Below are positions 5,352 to 25,178 of a DNA stretch of 32,000 nt, one piece after another. Every line of letters starts with the position of its first letter. Position 1 is the stretch's first letter. Location: NCBI RefSeq assembly GCF_008065095.1, contig NZ_CP042911.1:6570001-6602000 (forward strand), in the 5' to 3' direction. A program made the position numbers and the translations under genes. A model generated the notes under the pieces. That model was not told the DNA's origin, made no database searches, and worked only from the letters and a program-made list of their open reading frames with translations. This stretch comes from Gemmata obscuriglobus. Its GTDB lineage: Bacteria > Planctomycetota > Planctomycetia > Gemmatales > Gemmataceae.

Positions 5352-5631
5352 CGACCTGTTTCATTCTCTTTGCTATCGCATACCTTTTGCAATTGCAAAC
5401 CGCGTCTTGCCCTCGGATATGACTTGTTCGGTTTCCGAGACTTGTCAGGCTCGCTTACGGGTGTAGAATCGAGTATAGGAATGTGGTAATTGTCTCCGAC
5501 AGACGCCACGGTGTTCGCGGCCAGTTTCTTCAGAATCCAGCCGCGTTTGGACCGGATGGTTTTTAGTTGTGTTTGTGGAAATCCAAAGCAAAGGATTTCT
5601 ATCCAACAATATGCTATCTAATTTCAACAAA

Positions 5632-5705
5632 GCGCGTTTAGCTCAGTTGGCTAGAGTACCACATTGACATTGTGGGGGTCACTGGTTCAAGTCCAGTAAC
5701 GCGCA
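5632..5705 (+). tRNA. tRNA-Val (anticodon GAC)
   Basis: Hand-folded cloverleaf. Acceptor GCGCGTT/AACGCGC plus discriminator A; D arm GCTC-AGTTGGCTA-GAGT; anticodon stem CCACA/TGTGG with loop TTGACAT; variable loop GGGTC; T arm ACTGG-TTCAAGT-CCAGT. No encoded CCA. Confidence 0.93.
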
Positions 5706-5710
5706 CTCAA

Positions 5711-8504: not shown

Positions 8505-10607
8505 TCAATCGACCGTGACCGTGTGCGGGGTCTTCTCCACGTTCCCGGCCCGGTCGGTGGCCCCGGCGGTCACGGTCAGCTTGCCGGCGGGGGCGTCAAG
8601 CTCGACCTCCCACTCGGCGAAGTTGTCCCGGGTCGCGCGGGCCTCCTTCCCGTTGACCGCCACCCCCCGCACCGCCGAGCTGTCCGCCGTCCCGCCGCGG
8701 ACGAGCACCTTGCCCCCGCTCCGCACGACGGACGTGACGACCGTGCTCGGCGGGATGTTGTCCACGAACCCCGGGATGCCCCGGAAGTACTCCTTGCCCG
8801 TCTCGTCCTCCGCCGCCGGCGCGCCGATGCTGAACGGCATGTGCAGGTCCTTGTTCCGGATCTCCTTGAACGAGATGTTCTTGTACGTGTGCCGGTCCAT
8901 CACCGACCGCCAGATCCCGTACTCGGCCCGGAAGACGTCCACCCCGTCCAGGAACACCCCGCTGGTGCCGGCGTGGACCGACCAGTTGCTCTCCCACACC
9001 CGGAAGTTCTTGACCCAGAACGGCCGCCGCGCGTCCGGGTGCGCGCCCGCCGCGTCCGCCCTGAGCAGGTCGTTGAGGTCGTAGAAGGACTTCTGTGACC
9101 CGAACCCGTCCGGGCGGGTGATGCCCCGCAGGTTGAGCCCGAAGAACCGCATCGCGTGCGCCTCGTTGTTCTCGAACTTCACGAACGGCAGGGTCCGCAC
9201 GTCCTGCTTCTTCACGGTCCCGTCGGCCTGGCGGACCGGCAGCACCGGGTCGAAGTCCGCCGTCTTGCGGCACTCGAACTTGAACCCGTACTCGGCGCAG
9301 TCGGCGGCCACGTTGTTGGTGAACGTGTTCAGGCAGTTGGCCCACCAGAACGCGCCCCCCTTGTTCTGGTCGAACGGCAGCGCCTGCCGCGGCAGCGGCC
9401 GGCCCGGCGACACGACGGCCCCGAGGTTCCGGTCGAACACGTTGTGAACCTCGGTCCCGTCTTCGAGGAAGAACCCGTGCCCGACCGTCTTGTACCCGAC
9501 CACGTCGCGGACGATCAGGTACTGGGTGCCGTGGACCGTGACCCAGCGGTTGTGACTGTCCCAGACCGACGCGCCCCGCACGTAGCTGCCCCGCATGGTG
9601 TCGCCGCACAGGTGGTAGTGCAGCGCGTACCGGCCGAGCACGTCCTTCTTGCCCAGGTGCCGGAACTCGGCGTAGGAGACGCTCCCGGCGCTGTGCCGGT
9701 GGTACATGGTGTGCCCGCGCGCCCCGGCCGGGTCGGCGGACTCGACCACCACGTTGCGCGACAGGTTGGCGATCTCGCCGCAATAGCTCCCTTCCGCGTA
9801 GTGCTCGAACGTCACCGCGGCATCAAGGCGAGCGGTGCCCTTCGGGCCGCCGGCGCCCGCGACCGGGGCGTCGATCCCCGTCAGCACCCGCGCCTCGGTC
9901 TGGCACCCGTCCTCGAAGGGGCCGCGCCCGGCCCCACCGGGCTGCCGGGTGCCCGTCAGGATCACGCGGTCGCCGGCCCGCCACCCGCCCGGCAGCTCCG
10001 CGAGCGCGGCGGACGTCGCGCCGGCCGGAACGGTCTTCGCGAGCTTGACCCAGGTGCGGGACAGCGGCGCGCCGTGAAACTCCATGCGCCCGCCGCAGCA
10101 CACGACCGCCGGGCACGAGTCCTTGTCCATGCCGGGGAGGTGGTGCAAGCGGATCAGCGCGGTGTGCGCCTGCGGGACCGGGGCCTCGGGTGTGCCGACG
10201 AGCAGCGCGGGCCGGGGGGCGCCGGGCTTCGGAGGGCCGGGCACGGCGTGGCAGTCGCCCCCCTCCTCCGACGGCTCCTCCCCGTAGGTAACGGTCAGCA
10301 GGCCCACTTCGAGCCGGGTGTCACGGTCGCGGGCGAACTCGAGCGTGCCGGCCACCTGCACGAGCCGAATCACGTCTTTTGAGTCGGCGTCGTAGGCAAC
10401 GGCGTGCCCGGCGCGGACGACCACGCGGTCACCGGCCGCGGGGACCCGCCCGGCGTCCCACGTCTCCTTCGCGGACCACGGGCCGGACTGTTTCGACCGG
10501 AGCAGCGGCGCGTCGGCCGCGCGGCCCACAAGGGCGGACGCCAGCAGGGCCACCAGGGCGAGGGGCGCCGAAACGCGGGTCCAGCGCAACCGCACGATCA
10601 GACTCAT
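8505..10607 (-). CDS. Secreted G8-domain / right-handed beta-helix protein with C-terminal Ig-like domain
   Basis: ORF 8505..10634. I prefer ATG 10607 (GGAG 5 nt upstream) over GTG 10634. Signal MSLIVRLRWTRVSAPLALVALLASALVGRAADA. G8-type N-terminus SGPWSAKETWDAGRVPAAGDRVVVRAGHAVAYDADSKDVIRLVQVAGTLEF, then a long beta-helix-like region. Confidence 0.8.
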   Translation of the reverse strand: MSLIVRLRWTRVSAPLALVALLASALVGRAADAPLLRSKQSGPWSAKETWDAGRVPAAGDRVVVRAGHAVAYDADSKDVIRLVQVAGTLEFARDRDTRLEVGLLTVTYGEEPSEEGGDCHAVPGPPKPGAPRPALLVGTPEAPVPQAHTALIRLHHLPGMDKDSCPAVVCCGGRMEFHGAPLSRTWVKLAKTVPAGATSAALAELPGGWRAGDRVILTGTRQPGGAGRGPFEDGCQTEARVLTGIDAPVAGAGGPKGTARLDAAVTFEHYAEGSYCGEIANLSRNVVVESADPAGARGHTMYHRHSAGSVSYAEFRHLGKKDVLGRYALHYHLCGDTMRGSYVRGASVWDSHNRWVTVHGTQYLIVRDVVGYKTVGHGFFLEDGTEVHNVFDRNLGAVVSPGRPLPRQALPFDQNKGGAFWWANCLNTFTNNVAADCAEYGFKFECRKTADFDPVLPVRQADGTVKKQDVRTLPFVKFENNEAHAMRFFGLNLRGITRPDGFGSQKSFYDLNDLLRADAAGAHPDARRPFWVKNFRVWESNWSVHAGTSGVFLDGVDVFRAEYGIWRSVMDRHTYKNISFKEIRNKDLHMPFSIGAPAAEDETGKEYFRGIPGFVDNIPPSTVVTSVVRSGGKVLVRGGTADSSAVRGVAVNGKEARATRDNFAEWEVELDAPAGKLTVTAGATDRAGNVEKTPHTVTVD

Positions 10608-11318: not shown

Positions 11319-11367
11319 CGTTCGGGGCCGGCGAACGGGATCGTGTCCCGTTCGCCGGCCCCGAACG
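11319..11367 (-). terminator. Strong hairpin closing the minus-strand gene string
   Basis: Perfect 22-bp stem CGTTCGGGGCCGGCGAACGGGA (11319-11340) / TCCCGTTCGCCGGCCCCGAACG (11346-11367) with a 5-nt loop, 27 nt downstream of the ABC ATPase stop (11394-11396). Only a weak T-rich tail (GCGTTTAT) follows on the minus strand. Confidence 0.6.
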
Positions 11368-12335: not shown

Positions 12336-12342
12336 TGGGAAA

Positions 12343-12373
12343 GTTCCAAGTTCCAGGTTCCAAGTTCCAGGTT
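12343..12373. repeat. Left heptamer array of the four-helix-bundle cassette: GTTCCAA GTTCCAG GTTCCAA GTTCCAG GTT
   Basis: Read directly. Begins 7 nt from the ATG (12335) of the ABC ATPase gene. Inverted partner at 12815-12842. Confidence 0.9.
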
Positions 12374-12389
12374 GGCGGGCCGCGGGGAA

Positions 12390-12794
12390 CTATTCGCTGT
12401 CGTTCGGTGCGTACTTTCGACCGCCGAGATCTGAACGTTCGAGGTAGCGGATCAAACCCACCAGCAGTCGGGTCGTGTCACGCGCCAACGCGGTCATTCG
12501 CCGGAACGTCATCTCATCGATGTACTCGGCATCGAGCGCGGCACAAAGTTGCGACCGCACCTCACCCGCCGAGCCTTTCGCAACGTACAACAACTGCCGA
12601 AATTCAGCGTTCCCGTCTCGCTCGTAGCGCTCGGCAATGTTCGACATGACCGAGATCGAAGCACGCCGGATCTGGTCTCGAAGGGCGAAGTCACGCGCGA
12701 ACGGCTCTCCGCGAGTCACTTGGTAAACGGCCCTGTTCAATTCACGCGCCTTTTTCCAGCCTTCGGTATCTTCGAACCGGGTGATTGCGCCCAT
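12390..12794 (-). CDS. Four-helix-bundle protein (23S rRNA intervening-sequence protein family, TIGR02436/PF05635-like; same fold family as DGR Avd)
   Basis: Internal ATG 12794 of ORF 12390..13061, with SD GAGGAA upstream. 134 aa: MGAITRFEDTEGWKKARELNRAVYQVTRGEPFARDFALRDQIRRASISVMSNIAERYERDGNAEFRQLLYVAKGSAGEVRSQLCAALDAEYI.. This matches the family signature (W..A..L...vY..T..FP..E.f.L..Qi.RAa.Si..NIAEG....s..EF..fL..A.GS..E). Confidence 0.88.
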   Translation of the reverse strand: MGAITRFEDTEGWKKARELNRAVYQVTRGEPFARDFALRDQIRRASISVMSNIAERYERDGNAEFRQLLYVAKGSAGEVRSQLCAALDAEYIDEMTFRRMTALARDTTRLLVGLIRYLERSDLGGRKYAPNDSE

Positions 12795-12814
12795 CGGTTC
12801 CTCTGTCTTTCCAC

Positions 12815-12842
12815 TTGGAACGTGGAACCTGGAACGTGGAAC
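12815..12842. repeat. Right heptamer array: TTGGAAC GTGGAAC CTGGAAC GTGGAAC (inverted copy of the left array)
   Basis: Its reverse complement GTTCCAC GTTCCAG GTTCCAC GTTCCAA matches 12343-12370 at 25 of 28 positions. Its last base is the first base of the complemented TAG stop (12842-12844) of the upstream gene. Confidence 0.9.
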
Positions 12843-15196
12843 TACCGAACAGGCAGGTAAAACCGGACCCACGTTTCCTGGCGGCCGGTGCCCGGCAGCG
12901 GCTGGCGGGCGCCGCTCCCCGGCAGCCCCTTCAGCCACACCCGCGACGGCGAGTTGGGGCCGCTCAGCACCTCTTCGGCGGCGCCCGGCGGCGTCGCGAC
13001 CCGGCCCACCACGATGACCTCGTCGCGGACGTGCTGCCCGTGGTACTCGGAGAACCGCCACGACTGGTCCAGCCGGCGCAGCGACGCGTTCCGCGGCACC
13101 ACGCCCTCGTCGTTCCGCAGCGCCCCCTCGTGGAACAGCAGCCCGGTGAGGGGGAGCGGCCCGGTGTACACCGTTTGCTGTTGCAACTGTCGCTCCACGT
13201 TCTTCTGGCCCGGCCGGTCGGCGTACGACTGCACCCGCCGGAGCAGTTCTTCCAGTTTGGCGTTACCGCGGAGCCACTCCTGCGTGCTCTCGCCCTGAAC
13301 CATCACCAGCCGCACCGTGCGGCCGCGCGTGATGACGCCGCCCGGCAGCGGGTACGCCTGCCCCGCGTAGAACGCGACGCAGTCGGTCAGTTCGGGCACC
13401 GGCAGGTCGTGGCGGAACGTGCCGATCGCCCGCGAGCGGTCCCCGGGCGGGTGAACCAGGTTGGAGGTCACCGGCGCGGGCGCCCCGGGCGCGCCGGTCA
13501 GTTTCGCCGACCAGTTCGCGGAGAACGCCTTCGTGGACCACACCTGAATCGGCACGCCCTCCAGCCCCTCGTCGCGCCGGGGGTACCGCCGCCGGGTGAG
13601 GCTCGCGCGCCCCGCCCGCGGGGCGCCGAACCCCGCCACCGCGGTTCCCTCGGGGAGTTCCTCCGCGGCCCAGCCGTCGCCCGGCGTCAGCCCGACCGAG
13701 TAGGAGTCGATGCGGGGGCTGAACACCGTAAACCACGTCGAACCGTACACGCGGTCCGAAGCCGGGTCCACGTCCACGATGTCGAGCTTGTTCACCTTCA
13801 GGTCGCGCCCCTTCACCGCGGACGCGGAGACGTACGCCAGCACGCTCACCGTCAGCACGATGATCGGGAACGTGACCCAGGTCAGCTCGAGCCGCCCGAA
13901 CACGCGCTTCAGGACGTAGTATTCGACCGGCCCGACCAGCAGGATGTACAGCGCAATGAGGAGCGCCACCCAGCCGAAGGACACCACCGGAACGCCGTCG
14001 AACGCGTCGTTGTGGCCCCGCACCGCGACCGCGATCTCGTCCTCGTCCTCCGTCATGCTGCCGGCCGACCGGGGCTTGCCGTCGCCGCCGCTGGACGCGC
14101 GGCTCGCGCCGGCGTCCCGCAGCAGGAAGTCCCAATAGTCGGCCCGGGCGGCGAACTCCGCGAACTGCGGGCCGTCGAGGTCGAACGCCACTTGGGTCAC
14201 GCGGCCCAACCCGAGCGGCGCCTGCACGACGACCGCGGGCCGCTCTTCGTTCGCGACCGGCGGCGGGCTGAGCACGCGGGCGGGTTTGCCGGGGCGGGCC
14301 GCGAGGTTCGCGACCGGGAACGCGCCGCCGCGCCCGCCGAGCGTCCCGCTGGCGGAGTTCTTTTCGCCCGCGGGCCACACCAGCGCGACCGCGGACACGT
14401 CGCGGGTCGGCGCCTCCGGCCGCACCCGGAACGGGAGGAGCGGGTCCATCGCCGGGAGCGACGCCACGACCGGCGCGTTCGCCCCGACCGACGTCACGAC
14501 CCGCCCGCCCCGGCGCACCCATTCGACGAGCGCCTCGCGCTTCTTCTGGTTCTGCGGGGTGGCATCCGGCGCGAAGAGTTGCTTCACGAAGTCGGCGGCG
14601 CCGGTACCGAGCACCACCAGGTCGGCGCCGTCGTACCCGTACCACCGGTCGGGGAGTTGGGCGACGGTCGCGATGTGCGTGAAATCCACGCGCCCGGCCC
14701 GGAGCGGTCCCGAATCGGTGGCGCCGGCGGGCCGCGGCAGCTCGAACTTGGGCGCCGTGCCTCCCAGCGCGAGCACCACGTATTGCAGCGATTCGCGCAC
14801 CCGCGGTTTTACCCGGAACGGCTCGGACAGGGCCGAGCCGCCCTTCGCCCGCACCCAAACGGTGACCTCACTCGCGAGGCCGTTGGGGCGGACGTACCCG
14901 ATCGCGGCACGGTCGGTCGCCAGGTCCACCGGCACGACCGAGGTCACGGTCACCTCGTCGGGATCGGGCGCCTCGATCACCACCTCGGCCGGATCGGAAC
15001 CTGCCCCGGTCACCTCGAAATTGACGTACACCGGCGCCCACGCGCCGAACTTGGCGATAAACGTGTCGTCGCGGCCGCTGGGGAGCCCGACCGCGGCGGC
15101 GGTGATCTTCACACCGTCTTTGGCGGTGGCGGTCGCGGCGCCGAGGAGGAACACGAGCAGCGTCGCGAGGGCACGCACCACAGTCGCCGTTGGCAT
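12842..15196 (-). CDS. 784-aa secreted/membrane protein of unknown function (signal peptide, large N-terminal exported region, two central TM helices, large C-terminal region)
   Basis: ORF 12842..15457. The likely start is ATG 15196 (purine-rich AAAGAAAGAAG upstream), giving the signal peptide MPTATVVRALATLLVFLLGAATATA. TM pair ..VVSFGWVALLIALYILLVGPVEYYVL.. and ..LTWVTFPIIVLTVSVLAYVSASAV... The segment ..LQYVVLALGG..GADLVVLGTG..LVEWVRRGGRVV.. recalls GATase1-like/ABC-auxiliary (GldG-type) folds; that link is inference only. Confidence 0.75.
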   Translation of the reverse strand: MPTATVVRALATLLVFLLGAATATAKDGVKITAAAVGLPSGRDDTFIAKFGAWAPVYVNFEVTGAGSDPAEVVIEAPDPDEVTVTSVVPVDLATDRAAIGYVRPNGLASEVTVWVRAKGGSALSEPFRVKPRVRESLQYVVLALGGTAPKFELPRPAGATDSGPLRAGRVDFTHIATVAQLPDRWYGYDGADLVVLGTGAADFVKQLFAPDATPQNQKKREALVEWVRRGGRVVTSVGANAPVVASLPAMDPLLPFRVRPEAPTRDVSAVALVWPAGEKNSASGTLGGRGGAFPVANLAARPGKPARVLSPPPVANEERPAVVVQAPLGLGRVTQVAFDLDGPQFAEFAARADYWDFLLRDAGASRASSGGDGKPRSAGSMTEDEDEIAVAVRGHNDAFDGVPVVSFGWVALLIALYILLVGPVEYYVLKRVFGRLELTWVTFPIIVLTVSVLAYVSASAVKGRDLKVNKLDIVDVDPASDRVYGSTWFTVFSPRIDSYSVGLTPGDGWAAEELPEGTAVAGFGAPRAGRASLTRRRYPRRDEGLEGVPIQVWSTKAFSANWSAKLTGAPGAPAPVTSNLVHPPGDRSRAIGTFRHDLPVPELTDCVAFYAGQAYPLPGGVITRGRTVRLVMVQGESTQEWLRGNAKLEELLRRVQSYADRPGQKNVERQLQQQTVYTGPLPLTGLLFHEGALRNDEGVVPRNASLRRLDQSWRFSEYHGQHVRDEVIVVGRVATPPGAAEEVLSGPNSPSRVWLKGLPGSGARQPLPGTGRQETWVRFYLPVR

Positions 15197-15237: not shown

Positions 15238-15564
15238 TCACGGCTTGGCGGCGGCGCACGCGCACGGCGCCCGACCGCACTTCGGGCACCCGGCCCCGTA
15301 CTTCCGTCGCACCGCGTCGTCGAGGTCCACGCCCGCGATGTTGGCCAGCGTGGCCAGCCACGCCAGCACGTCGGCGAACTCGAGCGTCAGGTTCTCGGGG
15401 TCGGCGGCGGGGTCGCGGAGCGCGGCCGACAGCTCGCCGACCTCCTCCATGAACCACATGAACGTCCCTTCGATCCCGCGGCGCGCGTCCTTCGCGCCGA
15501 ACAGGTCGCGGATGCGGGCCTGCACCGCGGCGAGGGTCATCGGCGTTGGCGTTGGGTCGGTCAC
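15238..15564 (-). CDS. MazG-like nucleotide pyrophosphohydrolase domain protein (small all-alpha NTP-PPase)
   Basis: ORF 15238..15564 (GTG start; ATG 15540 is an alternative). ..TLAAVQARIRDLFGAKDARRGIEGTFMWFMEEVGELSAALR......LEFADVLAWLATLANIAGVDLDDAVRRKYGAGCPKCGRAPCAC carries the EExxE-type metal motif and the Cys-rich tail typical of the family. Confidence 0.85.
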   Translation of the reverse strand: MTDPTPTPMTLAAVQARIRDLFGAKDARRGIEGTFMWFMEEVGELSAALRDPAADPENLTLEFADVLAWLATLANIAGVDLDDAVRRKYGAGCPKCGRAPCACAAAKP

Positions 15565-15673
15565 AAACCAGATTCTACAGGGGGCCGGAGAATGCGGCAG
15601 CCGGGCACTCAGATGTGATACGCTGGGCGGGAAATGAATGTTCTACGCGGGGGAGTCGAATGTCGCGGCTCTG

Positions 15674-15839
15674 AGTCTCAAGTCGTCGGGTCCGAAAGCC
15701 AGTCGTTTCAAGTTCCAGGTTCCAAGTTCCAAGTGGAGTCACCAGCGACACGAATCGCCGGCGCTTGTGACGAGCGGGGTTCCGACTTGGAACCTGGAAC
15801 TTGAAACGACTGGCTTTCGGACCCGACGGCTTGAGGACT
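15674..15839. repeat. Cargo-less palindromic element with the same GTTCCAR heptamer core: about 54-bp stem, 57-nt loop
   Basis: 15684-15727 (CGTCGGGTCCGAAAGCCAGTCGTTTCAAGTTCCAGGTTCCAAGT) is the exact reverse complement of 15785-15828. Pairing extends outward through one T-G wobble and one bulged G to 15674/15839. That covers two of the three bases (15838-15839) of the TAG stop codon (15838-15840) of the histidine kinase gene. The loop contains a second small stem, GTCACCAGCG/CGCTTGTGAC. Confidence 0.9.
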
Positions 15840-18330
15840 ACCCACAAGGCAGTTCGAGCCGGAAGCACGCTCCGGGCGCCCCGTCCGCCGGCCGGTACGC
15901 AACGGTCCCGCCGAGCACCTCCGCCCACTGTTTCGCCAGCGCCAGACCGAGCCCGGCGCCGCCCGCGGTCGTGTCCGCGGCCGCGCCGCGGCGGAACGGC
16001 TTGAAAATCGCCCTCCGTTCGCCCGCCGGGACGCCCGGCCCGCGGTCCTCGACTTCGAACGTGACACGGCCCGCCCCGCCCGCCTGCGCCCACAGCCAGA
16101 TCCGCTTGTCCGCCGCGTCCCGCGCGTACTTCCGCGCGTTGTCGATCAGGTTCCCGACGATCTGCTGCACCATCACCGGGTCGGTGCTGAGTTCCAGTTC
16201 CGGCGGCAGCGTGGAGACCACCACGAGTTCGCGCCCGTCGGCCGCGACCCGGTCGGCCCAGGTCTCCTTTAGTTGGTCGAGCAGTTCGGCGGCGCGCACC
16301 GGCTTCAGGTCGCCGTTCTTCCGGCGCTTTTCGAGCCGCGCGAAGTCCAGCACGTTATCGACCAGGCGGTGCAGCCGCTCCGATTCGACCGCCAGCGTGC
16401 GGAGGTACTCCTGCCGCTTCGCCTCGTCGTGAATCATCCCGCTCGTGAGCAGGTCGAGGTACAGTCGCAGCGACGTGAGCGGCGTGCGCAGCTCGTGCGT
16501 GACGGCCGACACGAACCGGATGCGCCGCTCCGCGAGGTCGATGAGCGACCACCCGCTCAGCCCGACCGCCGCGACGGCGACGAGCGCCGCCGCCCACGCC
16601 AGCGCCAGCCCGAGCCGCAGCGCGGTCCAGTCCCCGGGCGGAAGTTCGGGCTGCGGGCCGGGGTCGAGTTGAACCGGGAGCGCGGTCATCGCGCGCCCCG
16701 GCTGGACCCCGTCCGGGCTCTTCACCGGCACGAGCGTCGCGCCCGGGAACTGGTCCTTCACCTCGTCCTTGAGAAGTGCCCCGAGCCGGGGCCAGTCGAG
16801 GACCACCCCCTGATAGACGGTGCGGCCGTCGAGCTTGGCGACCCGCATCAGCACGAGCGTCTCGGTGCCGTCCGCCGCGGTGAGCCACTGCGGCCGCATC
16901 GAACCGAGGTGAATGTTGACGACCGGCGGCCCTACGAGCCAGTTTTGGGCCGCACCGTTCGTCAGCGCGTTGCCGAAACCGTTCGATTGACCCGGGCGCT
17001 CCTCGCCGACCGGGGCGGAAGCGCGCGGCCCGCAGCTCGCGCCGCCGGCGATGCTCCACGCCGCCGCGAGCAGCGGGTTCCGTGCCGCTTCCGCGCGGCA
17101 CCGCTCCTCGACCGCGTCCAGGCACCGGCGCCGCTCCAGTTCGATCCGGAGGGCCGCGAGCCGCTCGGTAATTGGGCCTCCGCCGGCCCGGTCGCCCAGT
17201 CGCTTCTGCAACGCGCCGGCGTCCTTGGCGAACTTGGCCTGGTCGAGTACCTCGCGGAGCTTGTCGAGTTCGGCTATCGCCTGACTGAGCGAAGTGCCCT
17301 TCTCGCTGTTTTCGTTGCCCACAGCCGGCGAAACGGGAACGTCACTATTCCGCACGTCGTTGTTCTGGAGCGCGCCCGGATAGTTCTTCCCGTACATCGG
17401 GTCGGCGCCCGCGCCCTTCGCTTCTTGAGTCGCCCGCTGAATGGTTTGCGCGCGGTTCCAGAAGTCGTCGCGCCCGCGGTCGTTGTCCGCAACGCGGGAA
17501 GCGCCTCTGGTGTTTGTCGCCTGCGGTCCTCCCGCGGCCGTTGCGCCCGGAGGTCCGGCCGGGGCCTGCGCGGCCGAAGGGGCGCCCTCGCGCGGCGCTG
17601 CCGACGGAAGGTTGTTGCCGCGGCCGGCCGCGGCCTGCGGCTCGCGCCGCGGCAGTTCCCACCCGAAAAAGCGGCGGGCGTCAGTGGCGTCTGGGGCGGC
17701 GGTCGTCGGGGTGCGTTCCGGTGGCGGGGGCGGCTTCGGGGCGGACGTCGGCGCGCCGGTCGCAACCGACGCCGCCGACCGCTGCCACGAATCGGTGGTG
17801 AACAGCGGGGCCGCAAACGGAAGCGAATCGACCGGAATCGCGCGGTCGCGCGCCGCCAGCAGCCCGCAGGTCGCGGCGGCGGGGTACTTCGCGCGGAGGT
17901 CGCTCAGCGCCAGCGCGCGGTCGGGGGAGTCGTTCCGGAGCGGGAGGTCGGGCCAGACCGAAGCGACCCGCTCGCGGGCGTCCGGGGGGAGCACCTGGGG
18001 CGAGTCCCACCCGGTCGCGGGGTCGAGCTGGACGTGCAACTTCATCCAGTCCGGGAGCTGCGCGCCGAGCAGCGGAGTCGGGCCGGCGGAACTGTAATGG
18101 TGGAACGGCCGGCCGTCCTCGCCGCCGAGTTGGAGCAGCACGCGGCCGTCGAGCTGCCAGAGCGCGACGCGGAGCTTGTTCTCGAGCTCGGCTTCGGCGG
18201 CGGCCGCGCGCTGGGCGGTCTCGACGCGCAGCGCGACCACCGTGAGCCAGCCGAGGCCGGCAAACACGAGCGCTGTGACCAAGACGAACATCATCGGCCC
18301 GCCCGCCGGGCCGAGCAACCGCCGTGACAT
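15838..18330 (-). CDS. Sensor histidine kinase with a very large uncharacterised sensor region
   Basis: ORF 15838..18330. TM1 MMFVLVTALVFAGLGWLTVVAL, TM2 LRLGLALAWAAALVAVAAVGLSGWSL, H-box FVSAVTHELRTPLTSL, N box GNLIDNARKY, G boxes VEDRGPGVP and GGAGLGLALAKQW. Confidence 0.9.
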   Translation of the reverse strand: MSRRLLGPAGGPMMFVLVTALVFAGLGWLTVVALRVETAQRAAAAEAELENKLRVALWQLDGRVLLQLGGEDGRPFHHYSSAGPTPLLGAQLPDWMKLHVQLDPATGWDSPQVLPPDARERVASVWPDLPLRNDSPDRALALSDLRAKYPAAATCGLLAARDRAIPVDSLPFAAPLFTTDSWQRSAASVATGAPTSAPKPPPPPERTPTTAAPDATDARRFFGWELPRREPQAAAGRGNNLPSAAPREGAPSAAQAPAGPPGATAAGGPQATNTRGASRVADNDRGRDDFWNRAQTIQRATQEAKGAGADPMYGKNYPGALQNNDVRNSDVPVSPAVGNENSEKGTSLSQAIAELDKLREVLDQAKFAKDAGALQKRLGDRAGGGPITERLAALRIELERRRCLDAVEERCRAEAARNPLLAAAWSIAGGASCGPRASAPVGEERPGQSNGFGNALTNGAAQNWLVGPPVVNIHLGSMRPQWLTAADGTETLVLMRVAKLDGRTVYQGVVLDWPRLGALLKDEVKDQFPGATLVPVKSPDGVQPGRAMTALPVQLDPGPQPELPPGDWTALRLGLALAWAAALVAVAAVGLSGWSLIDLAERRIRFVSAVTHELRTPLTSLRLYLDLLTSGMIHDEAKRQEYLRTLAVESERLHRLVDNVLDFARLEKRRKNGDLKPVRAAELLDQLKETWADRVAADGRELVVVSTLPPELELSTDPVMVQQIVGNLIDNARKYARDAADKRIWLWAQAGGAGRVTFEVEDRGPGVPAGERRAIFKPFRRGAAADTTAGGAGLGLALAKQWAEVLGGTVAYRPADGAPGACFRLELPCG

Positions 18331-20723: not shown

Positions 20724-21046
20724 GTTCTCTTGGGGGAAGCGACGGCAGCGGTCGCTGTTGGGACGTGCTCAGAAGATCGATGGGCGCGCGATCGTTTACA
20801 CGCGGTGATACCCAGAGCCGCACGGCGGTTCCGGAGCACTTGACACGGCACCGCCACTAGCCAAACCTGGGGACACCACCAAGCCCCATCGCACAAAATG
20901 GGCCACTGCCATCAGCCGAAATGCGGAGAGCACGGCCCCACCGATACATGAGCCCGCCGCGGGTGTCGCTTTCCGACGAGCCGCGACCGCCGGTCACGTG
21001 TGCGAGAACGGGCGGCTTTTGCAGCACGTGCGGGGCGCACGCTTCT

Positions 21047-21134
21047 GAAGACAATTTTTGACAGGATCGACAGGATGAAGACCGATCGATTTTAAATCCT
21101 GTTCATCCTGTCGATCCTGTCAAAAATTGTCTTC
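21047..21134. repeat. AT-rich perfect 33-bp inverted repeat built from 9-bp-phased ACAGGAT units
   Basis: GAAGACAATTTTTGACAGGATCGACAGGATGAA (21047-21079) is the exact reverse complement of 21102-21134, with a 22-nt loop GACCGATCGATTTTAAATCCTG. The right arm and adjoining loop read ATCCTGTtcATCCTGTcgATCCTGT. Confidence 0.9.
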
Positions 21135-21571
21135 GCATCCCCGCCGCGCGTTCGTGCCCCGCTCCCGGGCGTTCGCAGTTCGTCAAAAAACGCGACACCC
21201 GCAGCGGGCACGTGCATGTATGCGCCCCGACGGGAGCGTGAACGCCGTCGTCGGTCAGGGACCGGGAGGGCACAAGACCTCACGAAAACACACTAACATA
21301 CTGCTGATTTTTGGCGCATGAGCTCGCGAGAATGCACCACCGGACCGTTTATGGTTTCCGGTTCATCGGCGGTGCGTGCCCCCGCCGCTAGCGCAGATGT
21401 GAAGCCGGCGACAGACTCATCGATTTTACAGAACCGATCGGGTAAGATCGTCGCCACCGCAGTCTTGCGATCCCCGTTCATTGCGCACCCGCGCGGCCGA
21501 ACGGCTTCAGATCGAGCGGACTCGGGCCGTCGAACTCGCCTGGCAACTGGTCCGCGAGAGCCGGTGCAACT

Positions 21572-25014: not shown

Positions 25015-25045
25015 TGCCGGCTCGGTTGGAGTGGATTGCTGTTGT

Positions 25046-25122
25046 CTTTGTGGCACAGACATTCCTGTCTGTGTGGCTTGGAGCGCCGGACCCGCACAGG
25101 CAGGAATGTCTGTGCCACAAGG
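25046..25122. repeat. REP-like pair of inverted 26-nt units, each itself a small hairpin (CACAGACA-TTCC-TGTCTGTG)
   Basis: TTGTGGCACAGACATTCCTGTCTGTG (25048-25073) versus the reverse complement of 25095-25120 (TTGTGGCACAGACATTCCTGCCTGTG) matches at 25 of 26 positions, with a 21-nt spacer. Lies between the DUF4159 and MoxR genes. Confidence 0.85.
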
Positions 25123-25178
25123 CCAGACCCAACCGACCGGTTCCCCCATTCGCACACCGCGTAACGAAAGGACCGCCC

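Follow-up and report, generated by a model that had tools for sequence, protein, structure and literature searches.

What kind of element is the 166-bp palindrome that separates a histidine kinase gene from a MazG-like gene in the planctomycete Gemmata obscuriglobus, and does it belong to this locus or to a family that spreads? The palindrome lies in a stretch of 32,000 nucleotides (NCBI RefSeq assembly GCF_008065095.1, contig NZ_CP042911.1, positions 6,570,001 to 6,602,000), hereafter the window, whose numbering is used throughout. The original prediction, made from the sequence alone, took it for an empty, non-autonomous derivative of a nearby cassette flanked by similar heptamer repeats, related to that cassette as a miniature inverted-repeat transposable element (MITE) is to its parent insertion sequence (IS). 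Our comparison with related species leads to another picture, in which the heptamer family accounts for the tip of the hairpin only, while its base is an older structure specific to this locus.

Structure of the palindrome

Repeat search and folding agree on the palindrome as first described, with 44 consecutive pairs, about 54 pairs in total and a 57-nt loop (15674–15839, between the kinase and MazG genes). Its core is an inverted repeat of 51 nt (15677–15727 and 15785–15835, spacing 57 nt) in which 50 of 51 positions match (98% complementary), and the sole mismatch, 15683/15829, leaves 44 perfect pairs running (15684–15727 with 15785–15828). Beyond this repeat, a single bulged nucleotide (G15836) is followed by three further pairs out to 15674/15839. 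Both this bulge and one wobble had been predicted; the wobble holds for the plus strand only, where 15683/15829 is a G-U pair, and becomes C-A on the coding (minus) strand. The predicted fold energy was -129.3 kcal/mol for the minus strand and -128.1 kcal/mol for the plus strand, compared to an average of about -64 to -66 kcal/mol for shuffled controls (z = -14.8 and -14.3, respectively), and none of 200 shuffles equaled the palindrome.

As originally noted, the palindrome begins at the upstream stop codon: A15839 and G15838 of the kinase TAG (15838–15840) are base-paired inside the stem, an overlap of 2 nt. The kinase itself (HisKA and HATPase_c domains by domain search, 15838–18330, minus strand) has a full-length C-terminus relative to its orthologs, including those of the distant Gemmata (SH-PL17, G. 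massiliana, and G18), so that the stem begins at the native stop codon. The loop (15728–15784) contains no open reading frame (ORF), as stated before, and is predicted to form a 10-bp mini-hairpin of its own. On neither strand is the stem followed by a U-tract, and a scan for hairpin-plus-U-tract terminators was negative at the site, which upholds the earlier view that this is not a canonical terminator. An Rfam scan of the palindrome returned no family at gathering score, only sub-threshold generic long-hairpin microRNA models.

An older lower stem and a newer heptamer tip

The evidence for two layers comes from the nearest sequenced relatives, Gemmata sp. JC673 (kinase 86% identical) and G. 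algarum JC717 (79%). Both keep the order of response regulator, kinase, and MazG genes, and both have a hairpin directly after the kinase TAG whose lower stem is homologous to the outer 24–30 bp of the G. obscuriglobus arms. On the coding strand, this outer stem consists of a 5′ arm that begins within the kinase TAG (15808–15839) and a 3′ arm at 15674–15704. Across 23 aligned pairs, 19 were unchanged, three had undergone double compensatory changes (G-C to A-T, A-T to G-C, and C-G to T-A), one showed a one-sided change that still allows pairing, and none was broken. For the JC673 hairpin, the predicted fold energy is -89 kcal/mol (z = -8). Judged by these substitutions, the lower stem is locus-specific and evolutionarily maintained through compensatory change. 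The idea that the outer arm is part of a spread element found no backing, with 0 matches of an outer-arm 18-mer in IMG/VR and 20 single matches in JGI metagenomes, all with unrelated flanks and hence attributed to chance. The JC673 hairpin arms (L213:10499–10650) resemble degenerate 8-nt tandem repeats (CAAGTCGT CAGGTCCG GAAGTCGT AAAGTCGA), and the older stem, too, may have grown from a simple repeat.

The upper 23 bp of the stem and the loop are present in G. obscuriglobus and missing from JC673 and JC717, where the hairpin apex holds no GTTCC/GGAAC units and is unrelated to that of G. obscuriglobus; the loops of G. obscuriglobus and JC673 show a marginal likeness (one common 9-mer, p = 0.04). 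The tip is built of GTTCCAR/YTGGAAC units, three in one arm and four in the other (15705–15734 and 15785–15807). On the coding strand, its 5′ arm (15785–15807) reads GTTTCAA GTTCCAG GTTCCAA GT, and its 3′ arm (15705–15734) reads three YTGGAAC units followed by TTGAAAC, of which the additional unit at 15728–15734 permits a pairing register shifted by 7 nt. The perfect complementarity of the tip arms hints at a recent origin, although two lineages cannot separate a gain of the tip in G. obscuriglobus from a loss in JC673 and JC717. A contig with a more distant kinase ortholog (L216) cannot polarize this change either, since it has a different gene downstream and no hairpin.

Taken together, these comparisons indicate that the hairpin is a composite of an older, locus-specific lower stem and a newer heptamer tip, and that treating the whole 54-bp arm as a single element is wrong. 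An ancestral structure of this operon only, which the original prediction had itself held against its reading, comes close to what we observe: the lower stem is shared with JC673 and JC717, and the heptamer tip is not.

The heptamer tip and the neighboring IVP cassette

The tip shares its units with one other element. Sequences matching GGAACYTGGAAC with at most one mismatch occur 12 times in the window, compared to 0.35 expected, and 11 of the 12 fall inside the palindrome or the arms at 12342–12372 and 12813–12843; these are the only two heptamer elements in the 32 kb. The inner arm of the palindrome, ACTTGGAACCTGGAACTTGAAAC, differs by one base from the reverse complement of 12343–12365, which bears out the reported motif identity, and the 27-nt array of the tip matches the 3′ cassette arm at 26 of 27 positions.

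The cassette (12342–12843, minus strand, identified by domain and repeat search) lies 3 kb from the palindrome, has the same GTTCCAR/YTGGAAC heptamers on both sides, and carries a PF05635 gene (23S_rRNA_IVP/TIGR02436, 12390–12794, here S23p/IVP) inside the inverted arms. The product is a four-helix-bundle protein; among its relatives, only the Xanthomonas XCC0516 pentamer has a solved structure (PDB 2GSC). One arm adjoins the upstream-gene TAG, so the cassette likewise starts at a stop codon as had been described, and the other stops 7 nt before the ATG of an ABC ATPase gene. In the predicted minimum-energy fold, the arms pair across 440 nt (z = -4.5). Because the arms begin at a stop codon and end at a start codon, the modeled stem keeps the two adjacent, which suggests that it could hold the upstream stop codon beside the downstream start codon despite the 440-nt insert.

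Synteny of the cassette extends over G. obscuriglobus, SH-PL17, G. massiliana, and Frigoriglobus (near positions 9940–10500 of contigs L171, L172, and L173), and across Gemmata and Frigoriglobus its arms begin in the upstream-gene TAG and stop 5–10 nt short of the ABC-ATPase ATG. The Frigoriglobus arms have both moved to an 8-nt unit, GTTCCAGA, with complementarity kept. Given the same two flanking genes in three Gemmata and in Frigoriglobus, the cassette is old and not visibly mobile. At the orthologous site of Gemmata sp. G18 (L215:14303–14565), both arms and the leader motif CGGAGCG are present with about 100 nt between them and no ORF; by this alignment, the interval is a natural ORF-less allele of the cassette. 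Since G18 keeps both arms without the ORF, ORF-less derivatives do arise. The corresponding interval in JC673 and JC717 is 145 nt long and has no heptamer arrays.

The description of the palindrome as an ORF-less member of the cassette family can thus be kept in part. The heptamer core is shared, ORF-less GTTCCAR/YTGGAAC hairpins are recurrent (see below), and G18 provides an ORF-less site; the outer ~30 bp, however, are locus-specific, and the loop has no detectable cassette remnant. Local alignment of the loop with the G. obscuriglobus cassette yielded no significant likeness (p = 0.34–0.55), and the loop string CGACACGAAT, once likened to the end of the four-helix-bundle gene, is at chance level. 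One of six loop-to-cassette tests reached 0.01 (against SH-PL17), which we take as a multiple-testing effect.

Heptamer hairpins and IVP genes across genomes

Next, we evaluated how widely such hairpins occur. Pattern scans with GGAACNTGGAACNTGRAAC yielded 49 loci in a viral collection and at least 120 in a species-genome collection. Among the matches listed, which come from Planctomycetota (Fimbriiglobus, Zavarzinella, Stieleria), Acidobacteriota, Bacteroidota, Verrucomicrobiota, Nitrospirota, and Proteobacteria, at least 35 are compact hairpins with loops of 7–145 nt. Within the same listed matches, 35 close pairs have the GTTCC array as their 5′ arm and about 4 have the reverse order; the palindrome has the majority polarity. 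Approximately half of the 35 hairpins begin within 12 nt of a long-ORF stop codon in a strict per-hairpin check, and several end 5–10 nt ahead of a start codon, whereas array-to-ORF distance statistics calculated without a gene caller were uninformative. A PF05635 ORF is nearby in 4 of 169 loci among the matches listed, i.e., most heptamer hairpins are empty. One Planctomycetia contig of a metagenome-assembled genome (MAG) with a heptamer hairpin also has a match to the Rfam Acido-Lenti-1 RNA at gathering score (L127:5562–5607).

Conversely, all IVP genes inspected outside rRNA lie inside inverted tandem repeats whose unit is lineage-specific: GTTCCAR in an ABC transporter operon of Gemmata, the 8-nt GTTCCAGA in both arms at the same operon of Frigoriglobus, GGTCCAA in a bacteriophage exclusion (BREX) operon of Myxococcota, GTTTCTR in a polyamine operon on soil metagenome contigs, GTCCCAA or GTTCCAA between RecG and RsmD in Pyrinomonadaceae, and GTTCCAA on contig L055. 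No IVP relatives were found in viral contigs. Three sets of IVP homologs (L195–L204, L205–L208, and L209–L212) are 56–61% identical and co-directional within unrelated operons, each with a different flanking heptamer; the operon contexts seen are BrxC/PglY-IVP-PglX (BREX), DUF4178-spermine synthase, and RecG-RsmD.

Very long pure arrays of the same heptamer as in the tip were also observed, with 12 units in a betaproteobacterial MAG (L068:5389–5470), 19 at L167:6483–6613, and 14 at L152:10–105, which suggests that slippage may still be expanding them. In addition, the gap between MoxR and DUF58 genes contains a hairpin in each of three Gemmataceae (L171:13778–13873, L215:17836–17921, and L172:13822–13999) with unrelated arms, i.e., GTTCC heptamers in SH-PL17, a GC-rich palindrome in G18, and CACAAAG-type repeats in Frigoriglobus.

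Resemblance to known repeat systems

Two known kinds of element come closest. The first is the intervening sequence (IVS) of 23S rRNA, of which ORF-less forms of about 100–150 nt occur in Salmonella and Campylobacter. The Coxiella IVS has an S23p ORF, a 28-bp terminal stem, and tandem GACAGAT heptamers; heptamer number varies between strains, and RNase III excises the element at the first repeat (PMC4990558). The elements described here share with the S23p IVS of Coxiella and Leptospira a long terminal inverted repeat with heptamers in the stem and, in the neighboring cassette, the PF05635/S23p cargo. They differ in being placed among protein-coding genes instead of in 23S rRNA helix 25 or 45 (the window has no rRNA genes, and the palindrome sits between protein-coding genes), in the unit itself (GTTCCAR as opposed to GACAGAT), and in that the palindrome has no ORF and carries its heptamer stem atop an older, unrelated stem.

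The second kind consists of intergenic heptamer repeats. Xanthomonas has ~186 GGGAATC arrays, typically of four units, 70–75 of which form convergent pairs (Rehm et al., PMC4692102). These lie 0–50 bp from stop codons or overlap them, with conserved position and variable length, most are transcribed in X. axonopodis pv. citri, and similar heptamer arrays occur in Nostoc; the study found neither a link to mobile elements nor a function (PMC4692102). As here, these repeats are tandem units with convergent arms able to form a stem-loop within 50 bp of a stop codon, found at the same gene pair in related species with varying length and no IS link. Unlike here, the Xanthomonas GGGAATC and the Nostoc/Calothrix short tandemly repeated repetitive (STRR)-type repeats have another unit and occur in other phyla; GTTCCAR is not G-quadruplex-forming, and the array here is nested in a non-repeat stem. 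In the supplementary table of the Xanthomonas study, array #15 is placed 6 nt away from bccP and extends over the annotated XCC0516 start (PMC4692102). XCC0516, listed there as conserved hypothetical (XCC0516/XCC0517 locus), is the S23p homolog of PDB 2GSC. We found no open-access paper that links S23p/IVP genes with intergenic heptamer repeats or describes the planctomycete elements, and a literature search with heptamer strings returned cloning primers only. We conclude that the palindrome, whose function is unproven, is a variant on two kinds that are partly known, the heptamer-repeat hairpin and the IVS-type element.

A possible role at the end of the kinase transcript

The gene order at the locus (dioxygenase, response regulator, kinase, hairpin, MazG, an 812-aa protein, the PF05635 gene, ABC ATPase) places the hairpin at a boundary. 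The MazG-like gene (15238–15540, minus strand) has an ATG at 15540 that is conserved among orthologs, downstream of the annotated GTG start at 15564 (ORF 15238–15564). A promoter-like block, GCTGCCG-N17-GTAGAATC (15572–15601, minus strand), lies between the hairpin and this gene, is invariant 5′ of MazG in G. obscuriglobus, SH-PL17, G. massiliana, and Frigoriglobus, and is probably a promoter. The place of this conserved block, between hairpin and MazG, points to a separate promoter for MazG and to the hairpin as the end point of the kinase unit.

We therefore favor, as a distinctly possible though not yet probable reading, a two-layer RNA stem-loop that ends the kinase transcript and governs its processing or stability. 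The stem would fold right after the kinase stop codon and give the transcript more than 50 bp of double-stranded RNA, which would block 3′ exonucleases and offer an ideal substrate for RNase III. It would thereby determine the half-life of the kinase mRNA and the position of its 3′ end, and part this mRNA from the MazG unit with its own promoter-like motif; the heptamer tip would lengthen and strengthen a pre-existing stem. In line with this reading are the conserved pairing of the lower stem in JC673 and JC717, the cassette arms that pair in the predicted fold and stay complementary in Frigoriglobus, the stop-codon placement and common polarity of the heptamer hairpins among the matches listed, the RNase III excision of the Coxiella IVS, and the transcription of most Xanthomonas arrays. 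We infer this RNA-level action by likeness to repetitive extragenic palindromic (REP) elements and to phage lambda sib retroregulation. REPs stabilize upstream mRNA and, as Liang, Rudd and Deutscher reportedly found in 2015, stall ribosomes when within ~15 nt of a stop codon. Like the palindrome, sib places a long stem 3′ of a gene; the sib stem is RNase III-sensitive, and its cleavage exposes the upstream mRNA to 3′ decay. This is a mechanistic analogy only, with no sequence or evolutionary relationship.

Several observations weigh against this role. RNA-level action, RNase III cleavage, and an effect on kinase expression are all points that we infer. Of the arm mismatches in nine elements, 6 are wobble pairs on the sense strand, 14 are wobble pairs on the antisense strand, and 18 are transversions, and the antisense duplex is often equally or more stable; with no sense-strand wobble bias, these sequence data do not separate RNA-level from DNA-level maintenance. 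Arm-to-arm conversion of the palindrome at the DNA level could mimic compensatory change without any function, and terminating ribosomes would partly melt a stem that overlaps the stop codon. Finally, the distant Gemmata (SH-PL17, G. massiliana, and G18) have no hairpin and two small signal-peptide genes instead, and the nearest relatives are without the heptamer module, so the module is not required for a role of the lower stem.

Alternative explanations

We next considered the heptamer module as an ORF-less derivative of an IVP-type element that inserted into, or replaced, the apex of a pre-existing hairpin, in parallel to the intervening sequences at the tips of 23S rRNA helices 25 and 45. 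Such an event would fit the presence of the module in G. obscuriglobus and not in JC673 or JC717, along with the recent origin suggested by its perfectly complementary arms, but with two lineages only, gain and loss are inseparable. The 26/27 match to the cassette arm points the same way, but other genomes often show the same C/T alternation of heptamers, which makes this match weak evidence, and the loop is unlike the cassette. Similarly, the ORF-less G18 site and the IVP cassettes in unrelated operons of different phyla (a BREX system, a polyamine operon, RecG-RsmD) speak for mobility, against which stands a cassette that is syntenic in three Gemmata and Frigoriglobus with no visible movement. 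No target-site duplication surrounds the palindrome (flanks GCTCTG/AGTC…GACT/ACCCAC), the flanks of the heptamer module are inverted (GTCG/CGAC) and without direct repeats, no transposase lies within 20 kb, and no recombinase is nearby. Overall, insertion appears rather unlikely.

The same observations reduce the MITE-to-parent-IS mechanism of the original prediction to an analogy. Like REPs, bacterial interspersed mosaic elements (BIMEs), and MITEs, the palindrome is intergenic and placed just after a stop codon, as these often are. However, it has no partner transposase, including REP-associated tyrosine transposases (RAYTs), and no target-site duplication; its arms are tandem repeats, and no repeat of its outer arm turned up in IMG/VR or JGI metagenomes. 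Unlike the parent of a MITE, the full element here carries a four-helix-bundle cargo and not a transposase.

To a like degree doubtful is a neutral by-product of DNA metabolism, in which arrays born by slippage, with arms homogenized by template switching or conversion, persist as harmless. Heptamers are an over-represented simple-repeat size in bacteria, and unit number and length vary among relatives (7-nt and 8-nt units, arrays of 12–19 copies at some loci), yet one unit recurs across phyla. Hairpins of unrelated sequence in the MoxR-DUF58 gap of different Gemmataceae would suit a neutral origin, as would the absent sense-strand wobble bias and the lack of a function in the Xanthomonas/Nostoc study (PMC4692102). 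A neutral origin would be harder to reconcile with tight, recurrent placement at stop and start codons, with the polarity bias (GTTCC arm 5′ in 35 and reversed in about 4, among the matches listed), and with a lower stem in which 0 of 23 pairs are broken between species.

A non-canonical, U-tract-less terminator of the kinase operon is quite improbable, and a classical terminator role is unlikely. The position at the end of a transcription unit, before a separate promoter-like motif, speaks for a terminator, and canonical terminators are not enriched in the window (12 found, 13.5 expected). Other gene ends in the window also carry long hairpins without a U-tract, such as a perfect 22-bp stem with a 5-nt loop and no proper U-tract 27 nt past the ABC-ATPase stop codon (11319–11367). 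However, the U-tract is missing on both strands, mycobacterial hairpins without a U-tract failed to terminate transcription (PMC3993855), and E. coli terminators a few bp past a stop codon were repressed by the ribosome (PMC4824070).

The weakest reading, in which the heptamers are candidate sites for the S23p/IVP protein in trans or for an extracytoplasmic function (ECF) sigma factor, is very improbable: GGAACTT and TGAAAC resemble ECF -35 boxes, TGAAAC-N16-CGAC can be read on the coding strand (15710–15685), the IVP-flanking unit is also the unit of ORF-less arrays in the same genome or relatives (checked for Gemmata and Xanthomonas XCC0516), and arrays usually have 3–5 units for a protein that is pentameric (PDB 2GSC), but an IVP gene is within reach at 4 of 169 array loci among the matches listed, folded arrays are double-stranded, and many arrays come to within 5–10 nt of a start codon, too close to fit a -10 element and a transcription start in between. 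CsrA GGA sites and ECF -35 boxes within the heptamers are a weak possibility. Two further candidates were rejected: an integron attC site, which has GTT/AAC heptamer cores but the opposite polarity, with the cassette here being syntenic, and a sigma-54 promoter, whose spacing does not fit.

A link between S23p genes and intergenic heptamer repeats

Apart from the preferred reading, in which the hairpin would act as RNA where the kinase transcript ends, the most interesting by-product of this analysis is a link across phyla between intergenic heptamer repeats and S23p/IVP genes. Intergenic heptamer repeats (the cyanobacterial STRRs and Xanthomonas GGGAATC) and S23p genes have each been functionally unexplained for decades, and the sequence of this locus, its relatives, and XCC0516 suggests that they are two faces of one element type. 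The same architecture is seen inside ordinary operons of Planctomycetota, Acidobacteriota, and Myxococcota; one orthologous site shows both ORF-bearing and ORF-less states, and a heptamer module caps an older conserved hairpin. A bolder, speculative version, which we hold to be improbable as a whole, is that S23p/IVP genes and heptamer hairpins form one widespread two-part system, i.e., an IVS-type element that colonizes stable hairpins, at their tips or bases, in both the 23S rRNA and the mRNAs of many phyla, and whose stem would splice it out topologically by placing stop beside start or by joining rRNA fragments. The ORF-less hairpins, which are far greater in number and include the palindrome and the Xanthomonas/Nostoc repeats, would then be non-autonomous members, possibly recognized in trans by the pentamer. 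In genome annotation, a long stem of this kind, overlapping a stop codon, should not be labeled a terminator or a MITE by default.

Other features of the window

The window also contains a tRNA-Val (GAC) gene (5632–5706), preceded by a sigma-70-like promoter match at 5442–5469, the sole such match in the first 20 kb. An inverted repeat with 56-nt arms (80% complementary) and an inner tandem GACAGGAT(C/G) lies at 21024–21157, 5′ of a TPR/Peptidase_MA_2 gene. Finally, a hairpin with 34-nt arms (88% complementary) and a 15-nt loop, unrelated to the heptamer family, is found at 25043–25125 between DUF4159 and MoxR-type ATPase genes.

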